A DNA stretch of 38,823 nt from Escherichia phage YZ1. The notes beneath the pieces are model-generated. The model was not told the DNA's origin, ran no database searches, and saw nothing but the letters and a program-made list of their open reading frames with translations. The position numbers and the translations under genes are program-made. Shown one piece after another: positions 5,187 to 38,661 of this stretch (position 1 is its first letter; every line of letters begins with the position of its first letter). The DNA lies in the sequence record NC_047927.1; one strand, written 5' to 3'.

Positions 5187-5226
5187 GACTCAAGGTCATG
5201 ACCCAAAGTCGTGGCCTTCATGATTA
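5185..5226 (+). promoter_or_regulatory. Conserved hairpin copy 1 (putative RNase III site, T7 R1.1 position)
   Basis: TAGACTCAAGGTCAT-loop-GTGGCCTTCATGATTA; AAGGUCAU pairs with GUGGCCUU including G-U pairs. Same motif recurs at 12045 and 35468. Confidence 0.6.
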
Positions 5227-16946: not shown

Positions 16947-17171
16947 ATGTGTTTCAGTCCGAAGATTAGCACTCCGAAGCCTTCGGTCCAAGCACCTGAA
17001 CCAGCACCTCTGAGTGAGGAAGTTGCGTCAGTTGACATCGGGGCTGAATCAGATGTGGACACCAACGAGGCCAAAGGTATCAAAGACCTCAAGGTCAAGA
17101 AGGAGTCTGCACCTAAAGATAAATCGTCAGTGAGTCGCGCTATGCGAGCCTCTGGCGTCAACATGGGGTAA
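16947..17171 (+). CDS. gp6.7 homolog, small virion protein (74 aa)
   Basis: N-terminus MCFSPKI and EPAPL motif as in T7 gp6.7 (from memory). Confidence 0.7.
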   Translation: MCFSPKISTPKPSVQAPEPAPLSEEVASVDIGAESDVDTNEAKGIKDLKVKKESAPKDKSSVSRAMRASGVNMG

Positions 17172-17175
17172 GACA

Positions 17176-17580
17176 ATGCTACCATATCTCAACTCACGCG
17201 AAGGTCGCCACATGTGCGCTTGTCGCCTCTGGGAAGACGGGCAGTCTAACTTCAAGTCATTCGAGGACTTCAAGGCTCATACTTACCGTATGGCTGACGA
17301 GTTCGACGGTGAAGAGTACACAATCTACGATGTCTCAGGTCAACCAGTAGCGTATCTCTACATGCTGGCTACCGCATCTTGGCACCGACCGACTCCCGGT
17401 CTTGACCTTTCAATCGTCGCTATTCGTCGTGACTCGCAGTCCTCCCGCAAGGTTCTTGAGACTGTCAGGCACATCATAGACGAAGAGTGCAAGCGTTGGG
17501 GTCTTGGCTGGTATTCTCGTGTCAAGCATGTTTCTGGGTCGGTAGACATCGTAACAACTAAGGAGATTAATCGTGGGTAA
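17176..17580 (+). CDS. gp7-position protein (134 aa)
   Basis: Size and position match T7 gene 7 (133 aa); no motif verified. Confidence 0.55.
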   Translation: MLPYLNSREGRHMCACRLWEDGQSNFKSFEDFKAHTYRMADEFDGEEYTIYDVSGQPVAYLYMLATASWHRPTPGLDLSIVAIRRDSQSSRKVLETVRHIIDEECKRWGLGWYSRVKHVSGSVDIVTTKEINRG

Positions 17581-21701: not shown

Positions 21702-21742
21702 AAACCCCTTGGGTGCCTTCGGGTGCTTGAGGGGTTTTTTTT
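21702..21742 (+). terminator. T-phi-like terminator for phage RNAP (also intrinsic-terminator-like)
   Basis: AACCCCTTGGGTGCC-TTCG-GGTGCTTGAGGGG followed by eight T residues; resembles T7 T-phi. Confidence 0.85.
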
Positions 21743-21790
21743 CGGAGGATTAATGAAGATACGTATACGCTACCTTAAAGGAGATTAGTA

Positions 21791-22357
21791 ATGGCTCAAT
21801 ACATTCCACTGAATGCTAACGATGACTTAGACGCCATCAACGATATGTTAGCTGCTATCGGTGAACCAGCAGTCCTACAGCTTGACGAGGGGAACGCTGA
21901 CGTCTCGAACGCTCAACGTATACTGCATCGTGTCAATCGTCAGGTCCAAGCTAAAGGCTGGAACTTTAACATCAACGAAGCTGCTGTCCTGACACCTGAT
22001 GTCCAAGACAATAGGATTCGATTCTTGCCGTCATACCTTCGTGTAATGACCGCTGGGGCCACCAGCTACTACAGCAACATGGGTGGATACCTGTACGACC
22101 TGTCCACTCAGTCAACCACTTTCACCGACCCTATCACGGTAGAGCTTGTGGAGATGAAGCCATTCTCCGAGATGCCTGTGGTCTTCAGGGACTACATCGT
22201 CACTAAAGCCAGCCGTGAGTTCAACGCTAAGTTCTTCGGTAGCCCAGAGTCAGAGCTATACCTTCGTGAGCAGGAAGCAGAACTCTATCAGCAGGTTATG
22301 GAGTACGAGATGGACACTGGTCGCTACAACATGATGTCTGACATCGGGAGGGACTAA
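21791..22357 (+). CDS. Tail tubular protein A / gatekeeper (T7 gene 11 homolog, 188 aa)
   Basis: AIGEPAV, NAQRILHRVNRQVQAKGWNFNI, IVTKASREFNAKFFG, EYEMD.G.YNM match T7 gp11. Confidence 0.9.
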   Translation: MAQYIPLNANDDLDAINDMLAAIGEPAVLQLDEGNADVSNAQRILHRVNRQVQAKGWNFNINEAAVLTPDVQDNRIRFLPSYLRVMTAGATSYYSNMGGYLYDLSTQSTTFTDPITVELVEMKPFSEMPVVFRDYIVTKASREFNAKFFGSPESELYLREQEAELYQQVMEYEMDTGRYNMMSDIGRD

Positions 22358-24714
22358 TGCCGCTTATTACGCAAAGCATAAAAAATCTTAAGGGTGGCAT
22401 TAGCCAGCAGCCTGATATACTGAGGTTCTCAGACCAAGGCGAGGCGCAGGTTAACTGCTGGTCATCCGAGAGTGATGGCCTCCAGAAGCGCCCACCTACA
22501 GTCTTCAAGCGACGTCTTAACATCGACGTTGGGAGCAACCCTAAGTTCCACCTGATTAACCGTGACGAGCATGAGCAGTATTACATCGTGTTCAATGGGT
22601 CAAACATTCAGGTAGTTGACTTGAGTGGAAATCAATACTCAGTGTCAGGTGCGGTAGACTACGTTAAGTCCTCCAGCCCACGAGATGACATCCGTGTCGT
22701 TACCGTGGCAGACTATACGTTCGTCGTTAACCGTAAGGTTGTCGTCAAAGGTGGAAGCGAGAAGTCACACTCTGGTTATAACCGCAAAGCACGAGCTTTA
22801 ATTAACCTGCGTGGTGGACAGTATGGTCGAACCCTTAAGGTGGGAATCAACGGTGGCGTTAAGGTCTCGCATAAGCTACCAGCAGGTAATGATGCAGAGA
22901 ATGACCCACCTAAGGTGGACGCTCAAGCCATTGGTGCAGCTCTGAGAGACCTTCTTGTTACTGCCTATCCTTCTTTCACGTTTGACCTTGGGTCTGGCTT
23001 CCTGCTAATCACAGCTCCTTCAGGGACCGATATTAACTCAGTGGAGACGGAGGATGGCTACGCTAACCAGCTAATAAGCCCAGTCCTAGACACTGTGCAG
23101 ACAATCTCTAAACTACCTCTTGCAGCTCCTAATGGGTATATCATTAAGATTCAAGGTGAGACAAACAGTAGCGCCGATGAATACTACGTGATGTATGACT
23201 CCAACACTAAGACGTGGAAGGAGACAGTGGAGCCGGGAGTTGTCACTGGGTTCGATAACACCACAATGCCACACGCTCTGGTACGACAATCTGATGGCTC
23301 CTTTGAGTTCAAGACTCTGGATTGGTCCAAGCGCGGTTCTGGTAACGATGACACAAACCCTATGCCTAGCTTCGTGGATGCTGTGATTAATGATGTGTTC
23401 TTCTACAGGAACAGGCTTGGGTTCTTGTCGGGTGAGAACGTAATCATGAGCCGTTCAGCCAGCTACTTTTCGTTCTTCCCTAAGAGTGTGGCGACACTGA
23501 GCGATGATGACCCTATTGATGTAGCTGTAAGTCACCCTCGAATCTCAATCCTTAAGTATGCCGTTCCGTTTAGTGAGCAGTTACTACTTTGGTCGGATGA
23601 GGTTCAGTTCGTGATGACAAGCTCTGGGGTACTTACCTCGAAGTCTATCCAGCTTGATGTAGGCTCAGAGTTTGCCTTAGGTGATAATGCCAGACCGTTC
23701 GCTGTAGGACGCTCAGTCTTCTTCTCAGCTCCTCGTGGGTCATTCACCAGCATTAAGCGATACTTCGCTGTAGCTGATGTGTCTGATGTGAAGGATGCTG
23801 ATGATACAACCGGTCACGTATTGTCCTACATCCCTAACGGGGTGTTTGATATTCAAGGTACAGGGACTGAGAACTACATCTGCGTCAACTCTACAGGTGC
23901 ATACAACCGTATCTACATCTACAAGTTCTTGTTTAAGGACGGCGTACAGCTTCAAGCCTCTTGGTCACACTGGGAGTTCCCTAAAGATGATAAGATTCTG
24001 GCGTCTGCTTCTATTGGCTCTACCATGTTCATCGTTCGTCAGCACCAAGGAGGGGTAGACATTGAGCACCTTAAGTTCATCAAGGAGGCAACTGACTTCC
24101 CGTCAGAGCCGTATAGACTCCACATTGACTCCAAGGTGTCTATGGTAATTCCAATTGGCTCATATAATGCTGACACCTATAAGACTACGGTTGACATTGG
24201 TGCTGCTTATGGTGGCAACGCTCCGTCTCCCGGTCGGTACTATCTGATTGACAGTCAGGGTGCTTATGTGGACATTGGGGACTTGACCAGTATCTCTACT
24301 GTGATTACCCTCAACGGCGATTGGTCAGGACGCACAGTGTTCATCGGACGGTCCTATCTTATGTCCTACAAGTTCTCACGGTTCCTGATTAAGATTGAAG
24401 ATGATAGTGGAACTCAGTCTGAAGACACTGGTCGCCTACAGCTTCGTCGGGCTTGGGTCAACTACAAGGACACTGGCGCTCTGAGACTCATTGTCAGAAA
24501 CGGTGAGCGGGAGTTCGTGAACACCTTTAATGGGTACACCCTTGGTCAGCAAACCATCGGTACTACAAACATTGGTGACGGGCAGTATCGCTTCGCTATG
24601 AATGGTAACGCATTAACCACTAGTCTAACCTTAGAGTCCGATTATCCTACCCCAGTGTCAATCGTTGGGTGTGGCTGGGAGGCGTCATACGCTAAGAAAG
24701 CTCGTTCCGTCTAA
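22357..24714 (+). CDS. Tail tubular protein B (T7 gene 12 homolog, 785 aa)
   Basis: N-terminal ITQSIKNLKGGISQQPDILR, HLINRDEHEQYY, MPHALVR, FFYRNRLGFLSGEN, LKYAVPFSE, RLQLRRAWVNY and C-terminal IVGCGWE; colinear with T7 gp12. Confidence 0.95.
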   Translation: MPLITQSIKNLKGGISQQPDILRFSDQGEAQVNCWSSESDGLQKRPPTVFKRRLNIDVGSNPKFHLINRDEHEQYYIVFNGSNIQVVDLSGNQYSVSGAVDYVKSSSPRDDIRVVTVADYTFVVNRKVVVKGGSEKSHSGYNRKARALINLRGGQYGRTLKVGINGGVKVSHKLPAGNDAENDPPKVDAQAIGAALRDLLVTAYPSFTFDLGSGFLLITAPSGTDINSVETEDGYANQLISPVLDTVQTISKLPLAAPNGYIIKIQGETNSSADEYYVMYDSNTKTWKETVEPGVVTGFDNTTMPHALVRQSDGSFEFKTLDWSKRGSGNDDTNPMPSFVDAVINDVFFYRNRLGFLSGENVIMSRSASYFSFFPKSVATLSDDDPIDVAVSHPRISILKYAVPFSEQLLLWSDEVQFVMTSSGVLTSKSIQLDVGSEFALGDNARPFAVGRSVFFSAPRGSFTSIKRYFAVADVSDVKDADDTTGHVLSYIPNGVFDIQGTGTENYICVNSTGAYNRIYIYKFLFKDGVQLQASWSHWEFPKDDKILASASIGSTMFIVRQHQGGVDIEHLKFIKEATDFPSEPYRLHIDSKVSMVIPIGSYNADTYKTTVDIGAAYGGNAPSPGRYYLIDSQGAYVDIGDLTSISTVITLNGDWSGRTVFIGRSYLMSYKFSRFLIKIEDDSGTQSEDTGRLQLRRAWVNYKDTGALRLIVRNGEREFVNTFNGYTLGQQTIGTTNIGDGQYRFAMNGNALTTSLTLESDYPTPVSIVGCGWEASYAKKARSV

Positions 24715-24721
24715 CTTATTG

Positions 24722-24771
24722 AAGGGCCTATAGATTTACCTTAACTATCACTATAGGGACTATAGGCCCTT
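24722..24771 (+). promoter_or_regulatory. Perfect 12-bp inverted repeat (AAGGGCCTATAG / CTATAGGCCCTT) enclosing the next phage promoter
   Basis: Arms at 24722-24733 and 24760-24771 are exact reverse complements with a 26-nt loop that contains the promoter core; possible RNase III site or terminator analogous to T7 R13. Confidence 0.5.
24739..24761 (+). promoter_or_regulatory. Phage RNAP promoter (T7 phi13 position)
   Basis: CTTAACTATCACTATAGGGACTA, predicted +1 G at 24756. Confidence 0.75.
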
Positions 24772-24790
24772 AAGGTTATAAGGAGACTTT

Positions 24791-25261
24791 ATGTATATTC
24801 GCAAAGCTACGGAACCAGATGTCCACTACTTTCTGGGGCATCTTTCAGCAGATGATGTTAATGAGTGCAAAGCAAACTATGGGTCAACCGTTGGTCTCTC
24901 TGAAAGACTGCTTAAGCACCTATCTCCGTCATCTGTGGTTTTAACGAACGGTGTAGGCGAAGTGTTTTCCTATGGTGGGAACCAAGGGGATAACGTGTGG
25001 TTCTTGACTTCCGGTCTTGTCTACAAGCTGAGACCTAAAGAGAAGAGAGAGTTCACAAAGCGTATCTCTGAGTACAGGGACTTAATGTTAGACCAATACG
25101 GGACCATCTGGAACTACGTGTGGTCAGGCAATAAGTCTCACATTAAATTCTTGAAGCTGCTTGGGGCTAAGTTCCATGATGATTGGACTATCAGCCCGGT
25201 AACTGGTGAGCGTTTTCAACTATTCACTATCTCTAAGGAGGACGTATGTGTGAACCCGTAA
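24791..25261 (+). CDS. Protein in the gene 13 slot (156 aa); homology to T7 internal virion protein A not verified
   Basis: ORF after a phage promoter with TAAGGAG SD; overlaps the gp14 start; no motif I can confirm. Confidence 0.55.
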   Translation: MYIRKATEPDVHYFLGHLSADDVNECKANYGSTVGLSERLLKHLSPSSVVLTNGVGEVFSYGGNQGDNVWFLTSGLVYKLRPKEKREFTKRISEYRDLMLDQYGTIWNYVWSGNKSHIKFLKLLGAKFHDDWTISPVTGERFQLFTISKEDVCVNP

Positions 25262-25833
25262 GTATCGGCATGGGTATCATGGCTGTAGCCGGGGCCACTA
25301 TGTCCGCATCCCAGCAGGCCAAGGCCGAAGGTGCAGCAATTGACGCTCAGAATCGACAGGCTCAGGAAATGGTTAAGCAGATGAACTACTCTGACGCCAA
25401 CCTGAAGATGCAGGAGCGAGACCTGAAGGAGCAGCAGATGGCTGAACTGACAGAGACCACGCTCAACGGTATACGAAATCATGGTATGGTCCGAGCTGCG
25501 GTGGCTGAGTCAGGTCTGGAAGGTAACTCTATGGACAGGATTGAACGTCAGGTCGAAGGAGATACAGTCAAGGAGCGAGCAGGGATTACCGAAAGTTACA
25601 ACCGCGACTATGCGGCTATCTTCGGGAACCGTATCGCCAACATTGAGAACACAAAGTCTGCTATCCGTGGTCAAGGTAAAATTATCAAGACCAGCCCACT
25701 GGCTCATGCACTTAATGTTGTTACCGTAGGGATGCAAGGTTACGCCGCTGGTAAGTCAATCTCTGGAGCGTCAAGCTCTGGTGGTGCTGCACCAATTAGT
25801 GCTGCTAAAGGCACACCTACAGGTCATAGCTAA
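25246..25833 (+). CDS. Internal virion protein B (T7 gene 14 homolog, 195 aa)
   Basis: N-terminal MC, central GLEGNSMDRI and NYRRDY-like ESYNRDYAAIF, C-terminal AAKGT.TG; same length as T7 gp14. Confidence 0.88.
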   Translation: MCEPVSIGMGIMAVAGATMSASQQAKAEGAAIDAQNRQAQEMVKQMNYSDANLKMQERDLKEQQMAELTETTLNGIRNHGMVRAAVAESGLEGNSMDRIERQVEGDTVKERAGITESYNRDYAAIFGNRIANIENTKSAIRGQGKIIKTSPLAHALNVVTVGMQGYAAGKSISGASSSGGAAPISAAKGTPTGHS

Positions 25834-25844
25834 GAGGAGGACTA

Positions 25845-28127
25845 ATGGCTAGTAATATTGAATCAGCTCTGGCTAATCGGACTATGGGTCGTGGCAGAGC
25901 GCCGGGTAAAACTATCGCCGTCAACTATCAAGCAGCAAACGTTCAGGCTCCAACTGGGGACTCCGGGCTGGCTCGTGCATTAACTAACTTCGTTGAGTCT
26001 GGGACAGGATTGTATAAGCAGTTCAAGGACGATGAGAAGACCAGAGCTGACGAGCGGTCTAACGAGATTATCCGTAAGTTGACACCTCAGCAAAGACGTG
26101 AGGCTATCCAGAACGGCACACTGCTGTATCATGACGACCCTTACGCTATGGAAGCACTTCGAGTCAAGACTGGTCGTAATGCTGCCTTTGCTGTAGACGA
26201 CGAGATTAACGTTAAGATTCAGAACGGTGAGTTCCGTACACGTCAGGACATGGAAGAGTATCGCCACCAGCGACTTCAGGACGCCGCTAAGTCCTATGCT
26301 GAAGAGGCAGGTATTAACCCTACAGACGAGTTCTTCCAGCGTGGGTTCAACGATAACATCACAGACCGCAACATCGCTATCTATGGGTCTTTCAATAAGT
26401 ATTTCAGCAAGCAGTCTGAAGAGACAGCAATGTTGAACACTCGTATTGAGATGAACTCATTCCTGAACGATGGTGACCTGATGCGTTCACCTGAGTCTGG
26501 CAAGACATTCATGGCCTACCTTCGTGATGGACTGACTACTGCTGCTATCCCCTCGGACCAGCGAGCGCGGGAGGTCATTACCCAGACGGTCCGTGACGCA
26601 ATCCAGAAGTCAGGCGGCTCAAACTTCCTACAGCAAGTACGAGGCGAGCGAATCACCCTTAACGGCGTGGATGCTACAGTCGAAGAGATTGTAGGACCTG
26701 ATGTCTTCAATGCTGCTATGGTTGAGGCCCAAGGTACTGAGTATAAACTGGTGGCTAAGTATCAGGAAGACTTGTCGTTAGGCGTTCAGTCTGCGATTCT
26801 TCAGGATGACCCAACCATCGGTCTGGCCCAGATTCAGAAACTCAAGGAGCAGAACAACCTGCTTCAGCCGGGTGAAGAACTAACGCCTCAGCGTCAGATG
26901 CTTATTAATGCCGAAGCCAGCTTACTGGAAGCGGTCAAGCGTAAGTCCGCTGAACAGGCTAAGGAGAACACTAAGTTAATCCAGACCCAGAATAAGCAAC
27001 TGGTCATTGACCAAGTTTATCAGCGACGTCTGGCTGGAGACAACGTGTCCACCAACTATGAGGACCTTCCGGTCTCTGAAGCCACAGGAGAGTTCAAGCG
27101 TTCAGACATGAACAACTATGCGTCTGCCAAGCTACAGCAGATTGACCAGATGGACATCCCTGAGGCTGCTAAAGACGCGCAGAAGGTGGCATTGTTAAGG
27201 GCTGACACTAACAATGGTCCGTTCCGTAATGCCTTCCAGACTCTGACTCAGGACGCTGCTGGTGAGTGGCAAGCTGCGGTCATCCGTGGGCAGTACGACC
27301 CAGACAAGATGCAACGCTTCGAGTCTCTTCGTCGTGCCTACACTCAGGACCCTTCAAGTTTCGCTGCTCTGTATCCTGACCAAGCTCAGTTGTTCTCTAC
27401 GTTCGACCAGATGGACAAGATGGGTCTGGACCCTCAGACGATGATTGAAGCTGATAAGCAAGCTGCAAGTCAAAGCCGTGAGATGCGCATGGAGTCAGAC
27501 AAGGCGTGGCAGGAGTTGAAGAACGACTCTCGGAATAAGGACCTTTCGCGTCTTCCTACGTCTCTGGACTCAAGTGCTCGTAAGGTCTGGGACTCATGGT
27601 ACTATCGTACAGGTAACGCTGACGCTGCAACTCAGCAGACTCAACGCTGGCTGAATGAGAACACCGTAACGTTCCAGTCTGAAGGTTCTGACGGTAAGTC
27701 CATCGGCATGGTGTCCAAGCACCAGCTTATGGTCGGGGATAACCCAGAGTCGTGGCAGGTAGGTCGAGACATTATCGACACCGCTCGTAAGCAGCTCATT
27801 AAGGCTAACCCTTGGGTAGTTAACTCTCAGTTGTCCGTTGTTGAACAGAACGGCTCTATCTTCCTCCAAGACGCTACAGGGACTATTCGTATTCGCTACG
27901 ATAAAGAACTTGTAGGTAAACTCTACCGCGAACAACAGCAGAAGGCACAAGATGCCGCATACGCTCAGGCAGAACGTGACGCTAACAAGCGAGCGCGTAT
28001 CGTCGGGACTAAAGCTGCTGGTGACAAACGTCGAGCTGACCGAGAGGCCAACATCGAGAAGCGCGGAGGGATGTACAATGACGTCTCATTGGAGGGTATC
28101 GCAAACGTACTAATCGGTAAGGAGTAA
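25845..28127 (+). CDS. Internal virion protein C (T7 gene 15 homolog, 760 aa)
   Basis: ADERSNEIIRKLTPQQRREAIQNGTLLYHDDPYAMEALRVKTGRNAA is near-identical to T7 gp15; colinear similarity through the C-terminus. Confidence 0.95.
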   Translation: MASNIESALANRTMGRGRAPGKTIAVNYQAANVQAPTGDSGLARALTNFVESGTGLYKQFKDDEKTRADERSNEIIRKLTPQQRREAIQNGTLLYHDDPYAMEALRVKTGRNAAFAVDDEINVKIQNGEFRTRQDMEEYRHQRLQDAAKSYAEEAGINPTDEFFQRGFNDNITDRNIAIYGSFNKYFSKQSEETAMLNTRIEMNSFLNDGDLMRSPESGKTFMAYLRDGLTTAAIPSDQRAREVITQTVRDAIQKSGGSNFLQQVRGERITLNGVDATVEEIVGPDVFNAAMVEAQGTEYKLVAKYQEDLSLGVQSAILQDDPTIGLAQIQKLKEQNNLLQPGEELTPQRQMLINAEASLLEAVKRKSAEQAKENTKLIQTQNKQLVIDQVYQRRLAGDNVSTNYEDLPVSEATGEFKRSDMNNYASAKLQQIDQMDIPEAAKDAQKVALLRADTNNGPFRNAFQTLTQDAAGEWQAAVIRGQYDPDKMQRFESLRRAYTQDPSSFAALYPDQAQLFSTFDQMDKMGLDPQTMIEADKQAASQSREMRMESDKAWQELKNDSRNKDLSRLPTSLDSSARKVWDSWYYRTGNADAATQQTQRWLNENTVTFQSEGSDGKSIGMVSKHQLMVGDNPESWQVGRDIIDTARKQLIKANPWVVNSQLSVVEQNGSIFLQDATGTIRIRYDKELVGKLYREQQQKAQDAAYAQAERDANKRARIVGTKAAGDKRRADREANIEKRGGMYNDVSLEGIANVLIGKE

Positions 28128-38130: not shown

Positions 38131-38224
38131 CTGAATGAATAACTATAGGCGAAAACTGAATTAATACGCAGTTAGTAACCTATAGTTACTACCAGTCTAA
38201 CCTACTGTTTTATAAGGAGTTTGG

Positions 38225-38618: not shown

Positions 38619-38661
38619 CTAAGGTCAGTACGTGGATAAAGACTCACTCTACTGACCTTAG
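38619..38661 (+). repeat. Perfect 12-bp inverted repeat (CTAAGGTCAGTA / TACTGACCTTAG) with a 19-nt loop near the right end
   Basis: Direct reading; the arms are exact reverse complements. Confidence 0.7.

Follow-up and report, generated by a model that had tools for sequence, protein, structure and literature searches.

RNase III processing of the late RNA of T7-group phages has reportedly been known since the work of Dunn and Studier (1983). In T7, an RNase III site is located between genes 12 and 13, beside the gene-13 promoter (PMC6938266; bioRxiv 10.1101/106799), and it is under the name R13 that the RNase cleavage site of genes 12/13 appears in these sources (PMC6938266; bioRxiv 10.1101/106799, citing Dunn and Studier 1983). 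This site has been described as weak (bioRxiv 10.1101/106799), and the expression of T7 genes 11 and 12, which lie upstream of it, depends solely on read-through of Tphi (PMC6938266; bioRxiv 10.1101/106799). In the RefSeq record of T3, a stem_loop at 25443-25480 is annotated as 'RNase III recognition site R13' and overlaps the feature 'T3 promoter phi13' at 25457-25479, and the record of phiYeO3-12 contains the same pair of R13 and phi13 features, while the T7 records NC_001604 and V01146 hold the phi13 promoter alone in this region, with no R13 feature. Another stem_loop annotated in T3, R6.5 (17135-17206), encloses the promoter phi6.5 (17160-17182); its fold has a lower stem of 9 bp and an upper stem of 10 bp, separated by an internal loop, and the promoter occupies the loop of the hairpin. 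The biochemically characterised model substrates are the signals of the T7 R1.1 type, which are intercistronic hairpins consisting of a stem with an internal loop, and in which the upstream RNA, once a single strand has been cut, ends in a 3' hairpin by which it is stabilised (PMC3867540).

The DNA analysed here, referred to below as the window, is a stretch of 38,823 nt from Escherichia phage YZ1 (NC_047927.1). A 1-kb stretch around the repeat under study was 95-97% identical to Escherichia phages vB_EcoP_F, PE3-1 and K1F and to many other Kayfunavirus, with 217 matching phage records in all, and on the basis of this sequence identity the window is a Kayfunavirus, that is, a K1F-like T7-type phage (Autographiviridae, Studiervirinae). 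The repeat is located in the 76-nt spacer between gene 12, encoding the nozzle, and gene 13, which is followed by a homologue of T7_gp14. The spacer of phage K1F is identical to that of the window across 82 nt. Upstream, a Tphi-like terminator is found 3' of the capsid gene at 21703-21745 on the + strand, where a 15-bp GC-rich hairpin is followed by T8, and the terminator scan called this Tphi-like site as 21716-21733 plus T8 (to 21745). The promoter scan of the window detected no phage promoter between this terminator and phi13, and genes 11 and 12 are therefore transcribed solely by read-through. The features of the locus are listed in Table 1.

Table 1. Features of the gene 12/13 spacer and its flanking genes in the window (positions count from the first nucleotide of the window).
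Feature	Position	Strand	Basis and remarks
Gene 12 (tail nozzle / tail tubular protein B)	22357..24714	+	785-aa ORF; Pfam Phage_nozzle (T7 gp12 family), E = 0, full length
Gene 12 stop codon TAA	24712-24714	+	Part of lower stem
Lower stem, 5' side (UAACU)	24712..24716	+	Pairs with 24774-24778; minimum-free-energy and centroid structures
Upper stem, 5' arm AAGGGCCTATAG	24722..24733	+	Promoter positions -34 to -23; core 24725-24733 near-invariant in relatives
Loop, 26 nt	24734..24759	+	Contains most of the promoter and the transcription start
Phage-RNA-polymerase promoter phi13	24739..24761	+	Positions -17 to +6; +1 = G24756, inside the loop
Tandem 9-nt repeat ACTATAGGG / ACTATAGGC	24750..24767	+	Direct repeat; copy 2 contributes the first part of the 3' arm
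Upper stem, 3' arm CTATAGGCCCTT	24760..24771	+	Promoter positions +5 to +16
Lower stem, 3' side (GGUUA)	24774..24778	+	Same predicted structures and alignment of relatives
Shine-Dalgarno AAGGAG of gene 13	24780..24785	+	Sequence; outside the hairpin; ribosome binding site in the annotation of PV714130
Gene 13 (internal virion / scaffold-like gp13)	24791..25261	+	156-aa ORF; Pfam Phage_T7_Gp13, E = 4e-42

The two arms of the repeat are exact reverse complements, with 12 of 12 positions complementary and 26 nt between them, as determined both from the sequence and with a repeat finder. Perfect 12-bp inverted repeats with a loop of 3-60 nt occur twice in the window, compared with a mean of 0.15 (sd 0.36) expected from 100 dinucleotide-preserving shuffles of the window, none of which reached two or more. 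The sole other such repeat, at 38619-38630 / 38650-38661 (CTAAGGTCAGTA/TACTGACCTTAG, with a 19-nt loop), lies near the right genome end. As RNA, the segment 24712-24781 has a folding energy of -23.0 kcal/mol (z = -3.6), and its fold comprises a 5-bp lower stem, an internal loop of 5 and 2 nt, a 12-bp upper stem, which begins 8 nt past the gene 12 stop, and the 26-nt loop with the promoter. The two stems together give a helix of 12 + 5 = 17 bp interrupted by the internal loop, to be compared with the 22 bp of the idealised E. coli RNase III substrate (PMC3867540). Substrates of this enzyme span about two helical turns of double-stranded RNA, in some cases with an internal loop that confines the cut to one strand. 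By raw energy, the hairpin ranks in the top 4-5% of the 70-nt windows of the genome, outside the 25 most stable ones; what sets it apart is its position, its z-score and its conservation, not its raw folding energy. A search of Rfam gave no gathering-score matches in the window and nothing relevant at E values up to 10 in 24600-24900.

The sequence of phi13, CCTTAACTATCACTATAGGGACT, fits the K1F consensus (A/C)CTAAACTATCACTATAGGRAAA, and in the record of MZ726794, a phage with 96% identity, these 23 nt carry a promoter annotation that refers to the K1F consensus. The original prediction, which described a perfect 12-bp inverted repeat around a phi13-type promoter with the start of transcription in the loop, was correct in the repeat, in the name given to the promoter and in the placement of +1. 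The promoter and the 3' arm have 2 nt in common, at +5 and +6. There are 10 promoters of K1F type on the + strand of the window, namely phi13 and nine others that its sequence matches, and phi13 is the only one of the 10 that is bracketed by a hairpin (z = -3.4). The RNA initiated at phi13 does not contain the 5' arm, and its leader has no significant structure (z = +1.0). Among the other promoters, just the one with +1 = 5181 had a z-score below -1.5 (z = -2.7), and there the hairpin is located downstream. This hairpin, at 5187-5225 on the + strand and just 3' of that start site, aligns with the annotated R1.1 of T3, with which it shares AAGGTCAT...GGCCTT...TGATTAA while the bases of the upper stem differ. 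It is likely, judging from this alignment, to be a homologue of R1.1 that is unannotated in the K1F-group records inspected.

The surroundings of phi13 are repetitive in other respects as well. The tandem repeat ACTATAGGG/ACTATAGGC duplicates the initiation motif of the promoter, and the self-complementary hexamer CTATAG occurs in three copies inside 45 nt around phi13. The possibility that the duplicated ACTATAGG forms a second, overlapping promoter was dismissed, as no -17 to -5 consensus is present upstream of copy 2. Elsewhere in the window, a perfect 10-bp inverted repeat (38140-38149 / 38179-38188, TAACTATAGG/CCTATAGTTA) that carries the promoter-core-like CTATAGG on both strands was found approximately 50 nt upstream of a phiOR-like promoter with +1 = 38242.

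Conservation of the hairpin was examined in 24 IMG/VR loci and 14 metagenome loci that encode relatives of gp13 with 62-98% protein identity. The collected loci collapse to 22 distinct K1F-type spacers and one spacer of another type (L023). Comparison with these relatives agreed with the original prediction, in that the hairpin is kept in the K1F group and its 9-bp core, GGCCTATAG/CTATAGGCC, is near-invariant, with three single changes in all among the 22 distinct sequences. One of these, A to G in L010, results in a G·U pair, and those in L124 and L126 lead to loss of the pair beside the loop. Over the 22 sequences, 93% of alignment cells were paired, and the corresponding value for the lower stem was 97%, where the pair 24716/24774 is U-A in 14 sequences and U·G in 7. 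The third pair of the stem (G24724-C24769) is unpaired in 15 of the 22 sequences. What the relatives share is thus a 9-bp core with a looser extension, of which the perfect 12-bp stem is one version. None of the four K1F-group GenBank records inspected carries an annotation of the hairpin.

No double compensatory changes were found among the 22 distinct K1F-group sequences, in which changes that keep a pair were one-sided or proceeded via G·U, and the 14 metagenome loci added no new compensatory variants. A shuffle control for covariation was uninformative in this group because the columns are nearly invariant. The evidence from the K1F group is one of conservation and not of covariation, and a constraint on the sequence instead of on pairing could in principle produce the same pattern. 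In three loci (L020, L024 and L027), the specificity region of phi13 (-12 to -8) reads ACACCCTCACTATAGGGA or TAACACTCACTATAGGGA instead of the TTAACTATCACTATAGGGA of the window, and both arms are unchanged. The conservation of the arms thus does not depend on the promoter between them. As far as can be judged from their sequences, the promoters of these three loci imply that RNA polymerase and promoter have been swapped inside the K1F-like group.

The exact core motif was detected in 25 IMG/VR contigs, in 22 of them at the gene 12/13 spacer, and the other three (L130, L148 and L151) have it in unrelated contexts. In one of these unrelated phage contigs (L130:6690-6745; IMGVR_UViG_3300037189_003423), the same core is part of a longer palindrome, TTTGGGGCCTATAGGA...TCCTATAGGCCCCAA. 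A subset of the relatives (L014, L017, L022, L024, L026, L121, L123 and others) carries a 10-nt insertion, ATACTTTAAG or a variant of it, just 3' of the lower stem and before the ribosome binding site of gp13.

To extend the comparison to other T7-type groups, 80 further loci were fetched with the conserved C-terminus of gp12 as the anchor. In all promoter-bearing gp12-gp13 spacers examined, a hairpin begins 9-12 nt past the gp12 stop and covers the promoter. These spacers span seven promoter-specificity groups, and the arms co-vary with the promoter sequence of the group. The spacers of three more distant phages (L055, L091 and L097) contain neither promoter nor hairpin. The 3' arm is the promoter itself in T7, T3, phiYeO3-12, two K11-like subtypes, gh-1-like phages, L104 and L023, and in L075 the arms bracket the promoter, as they do in the K1F group. 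For instance, the T7 hairpin is formed by UUCUCCCUGUGGUGG with CUCACUAUAGGGAGAA (27234-27248 with 27265-27280, around +1 = 27274; 15 bp, z = -4.6), and the arms in gh-1-like Pseudomonas phages are AGUGGGGG and CCCUCACU. In L023, the hairpin of T7 type is iso-energetic with the minimum-free-energy structure and is the one that forms first during transcription. When 12 T7, T3, K11-like and L104 sequences were analysed with RNAalifold, 13 pairs were predicted, of which one is a G·U pair throughout (12 of 12) and three others alternate between C-G or U-A and U·G. Since G·U pairs occur solely in the RNA of the + strand, the conserved object is the structure of the + strand RNA and not a DNA cruciform. 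In the T3 reference, 15 consecutive G residues are found between phi13/R13 and gene 13 (L029:990-1010; NC_003298, about 25495-25510). phiYeO3-12 and T3-like IMG/VR contigs have a much shorter run there, which makes it a homopolymer of variable length.

We consider it probable that the hairpin corresponds, in Kayfunavirus, to the RNase III site R13 of T7 and T3, and that it serves for the processing of read-through RNA by RNase III. The cleavage itself, the exact site of the cut and the effect on stability are what we infer by analogy with these phages. The likely R1.1 homologue at 5187-5225 is a further point in favour, as another site of T7 type in this phage. Each gene-12 message is a read-through transcript that crosses phi13 and contains both arms, while the transcripts started at phi13 (24756) have the 3' arm alone and stay unstructured. 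Host RNase III would then cut the read-through RNA at the stem, separating a gene 11-12 message that keeps a protective 3'-terminal hairpin. It has been reported that the 3'-terminal hairpins of messages cut by RNase III are determinants of their stability (PMC3867540). The same cut would release a gene-13 message with its Shine-Dalgarno sequence intact and with a 5' end close to that of the RNA initiated at phi13. A literature search, covering sources other than the K1F genome paper (Scholl and Merril 2005), returned no paper linking Kayfunavirus with RNase III and no transcript-end data.

Several other explanations for the hairpin were weighed against RNase III processing. The RNA hairpin might act uncleaved, either by blocking 3'-5' exonucleases once decay has set in from downstream or as an insulator that uncouples the translation of gene 13 from that of gene 12, and this differs from the RNase III explanation in the cleavage step only. 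The helix of 12 + 5 bp is shorter than the 22-bp ideal substrate of RNase III (PMC3867540), the R13 site of T7 is reportedly cut weakly (bioRxiv 10.1101/106799), and the stem starts 8 nt past the gene 12 stop, with the stop codon within the lower stem, all of which would suit a hairpin that is not cut. However, the records of T3 and phiYeO3-12 list the hairpins at the equivalent position as RNase III sites, and the layering of stem, internal loop and stem fits annotated RNase III sites such as R6.5 of T3, so that we regard an uncleaved hairpin as unlikely, though worth keeping in view. The designation of the T7 and T3 homologues as processing sites argues against a role in terminating, pausing or attenuating transcription by the phage RNA polymerase, which would limit read-through into genes 13-17. 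A stable hairpin at a gene boundary could suggest such a role, but no U-run is present, the stem is followed by AAGGUUAUAAGG, the loop has 26 nt and is not small, and the terminator scan, which called the Tphi-like site with T8 at 21716-21745, did not call the hairpin at phi13. A role in terminating or attenuating transcription is thus extremely improbable, and of the two functions in read-through transcripts that had been proposed originally, that of a processing site gains support, by analogy, from the R13 annotated at this place in T3 and phiYeO3-12, from the similar fold of T7 and from the unstructured leader of the RNA initiated at phi13, while that of an attenuator does not survive.

The original prediction had also put forward a DNA cruciform or a protein-binding palindrome, and the repeat might indeed function at the DNA level, as a cruciform, as a site for a dimeric protein that controls phi13, or as a hairpin in single-stranded DNA that is involved in replication or is sensed by host defences. 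The perfect palindrome folds as DNA (-11.5 kcal/mol, z = -3.3), and it has been reported that the Lamassu system DdmABC is triggered by palindromes at RNase III sites of T7, which were proposed to form hairpins in single-stranded DNA (PMC11707656). Against this, the spacer between the arms is 26 nt long, the hairpins of T7, T3 and K11-like phages need G·U pairs that are unavailable in DNA or on the other strand, and the substitutions that keep pairs in the K1F group also proceed via G·U, which is G·T in DNA. A spacer of 26 nt is strongly unfavourable to the extrusion of a cruciform. T7-type polymerases use the region from -17 to +6, and the arms, except for the 2-nt overlap mentioned above, lie outside that region; moreover, we know of no candidate protein that binds the palindrome. 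A DNA-level element is very unlikely on these grounds, and the spacer length and the G·U-dependent pairing in relatives and in other genera speak against the cruciform and the protein-binding palindrome alike. The palindrome might instead have no function and be a by-product of local duplication or inversion of the palindromic promoter core CTATAGG, as the tandem 9-mer ACTATAGGG/ACTATAGGC and the three copies of CTATAG in 45 nt could indicate. However, both arms are kept in relatives whose gp13 is 62-67% identical and whose promoter specificity region is different, and a hairpin is found at the same place in seven promoter groups with different sequences, which makes a functionless by-product a highly improbable explanation.

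If RNase III processing is the correct explanation, the hairpin opens no new question, the processing of T7-group RNA by RNase III being long known. An annotation gap in the K1F group would be filled, in that the gene 12/13 spacer would combine a promoter with an RNA-processing signal. Furthermore, phages of the K1F group are used in therapy and engineering, and edits of the spacer or refactoring of phi13 could alter the stability of the gene 11-12 mRNA and the expression of gene 13. It is also conceivable, although we hold it to be rather improbable, that the hairpin of the gene 12/13 spacer is maintained through turnover of its sequence, and, without excluding this, that the palindrome also matters as DNA. 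With turnover, a 9-nt duplication in the K1F lineage (ACTATAGGG to ACTATAGGC) would have created a new pairing partner on the 3' side and moved the stem off the promoter, so that the specificity of the promoter would have been free to change, as in L020, L024 and L027, with the processing signal fixed. As DNA, the palindrome might be a target or a decoy for defences that sense palindromes, such as Lamassu DdmABC.

When the locus is compared with the described sites, the closest in position is R13 of T7, T3 and phiYeO3-12. In each case, the hairpin lies in the gene 12/13 spacer on the transcribed strand and starts approximately 10 nt past the stop of gene 12; it spans phi13, so that both arms are present in read-through RNA alone; and the stems are comparable in length (12-15 bp) and stability. 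Therefore, the hairpin is most likely, by this analogy, an ordinary and previously unannotated K1F-group version of the known R13 feature of T7 and T3. The sequences, in contrast, are not alignable and show no evident homology (GGCCTATAG/CTATAGGCC here, TCTCCCTGTGGTG/CACTATAGGGAGA in R13 of T7 and T3), and apart from the position, nothing but the TAACT motif at the stop codon is shared. In T7, T3, K11-like and gh-1-like phages and in L023, the 3' arm is the promoter (about -9 to +8), whereas in the K1F type the arms flank the promoter, from -34 to -23 on one side and from +5 to +16 on the other, and a tandem duplicate of the initiation motif serves as the 3' arm. The K1F group thus differs from T7 and T3 in that the arms bracket the promoter, apparently by way of the 9-nt tandem duplication of the initiation motif.

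In architecture, R6.5 of T3 is a parallel. Both consist of a lower stem, an asymmetric internal loop and an upper stem of 10-12 bp, both hold a 23-nt promoter in a loop of approximately 25 nt, and in both the 3' arm starts at +5. However, R6.5 is located before gene 6.5, its sequence is unrelated, and its lower stem has 9 bp instead of 5 bp. The signals of the R1.1 type are likewise intercistronic hairpins of polycistronic phage mRNA with a stem and an internal loop, but they sit 3' of promoters and are therefore contained in all transcripts, and their terminal loops are small, in contrast to the 26-nt loop found here. Among T7-type phages, the R13 hairpin keeps its position and its shape, and its sequence follows that of the promoter or, in the K1F group, escapes it.
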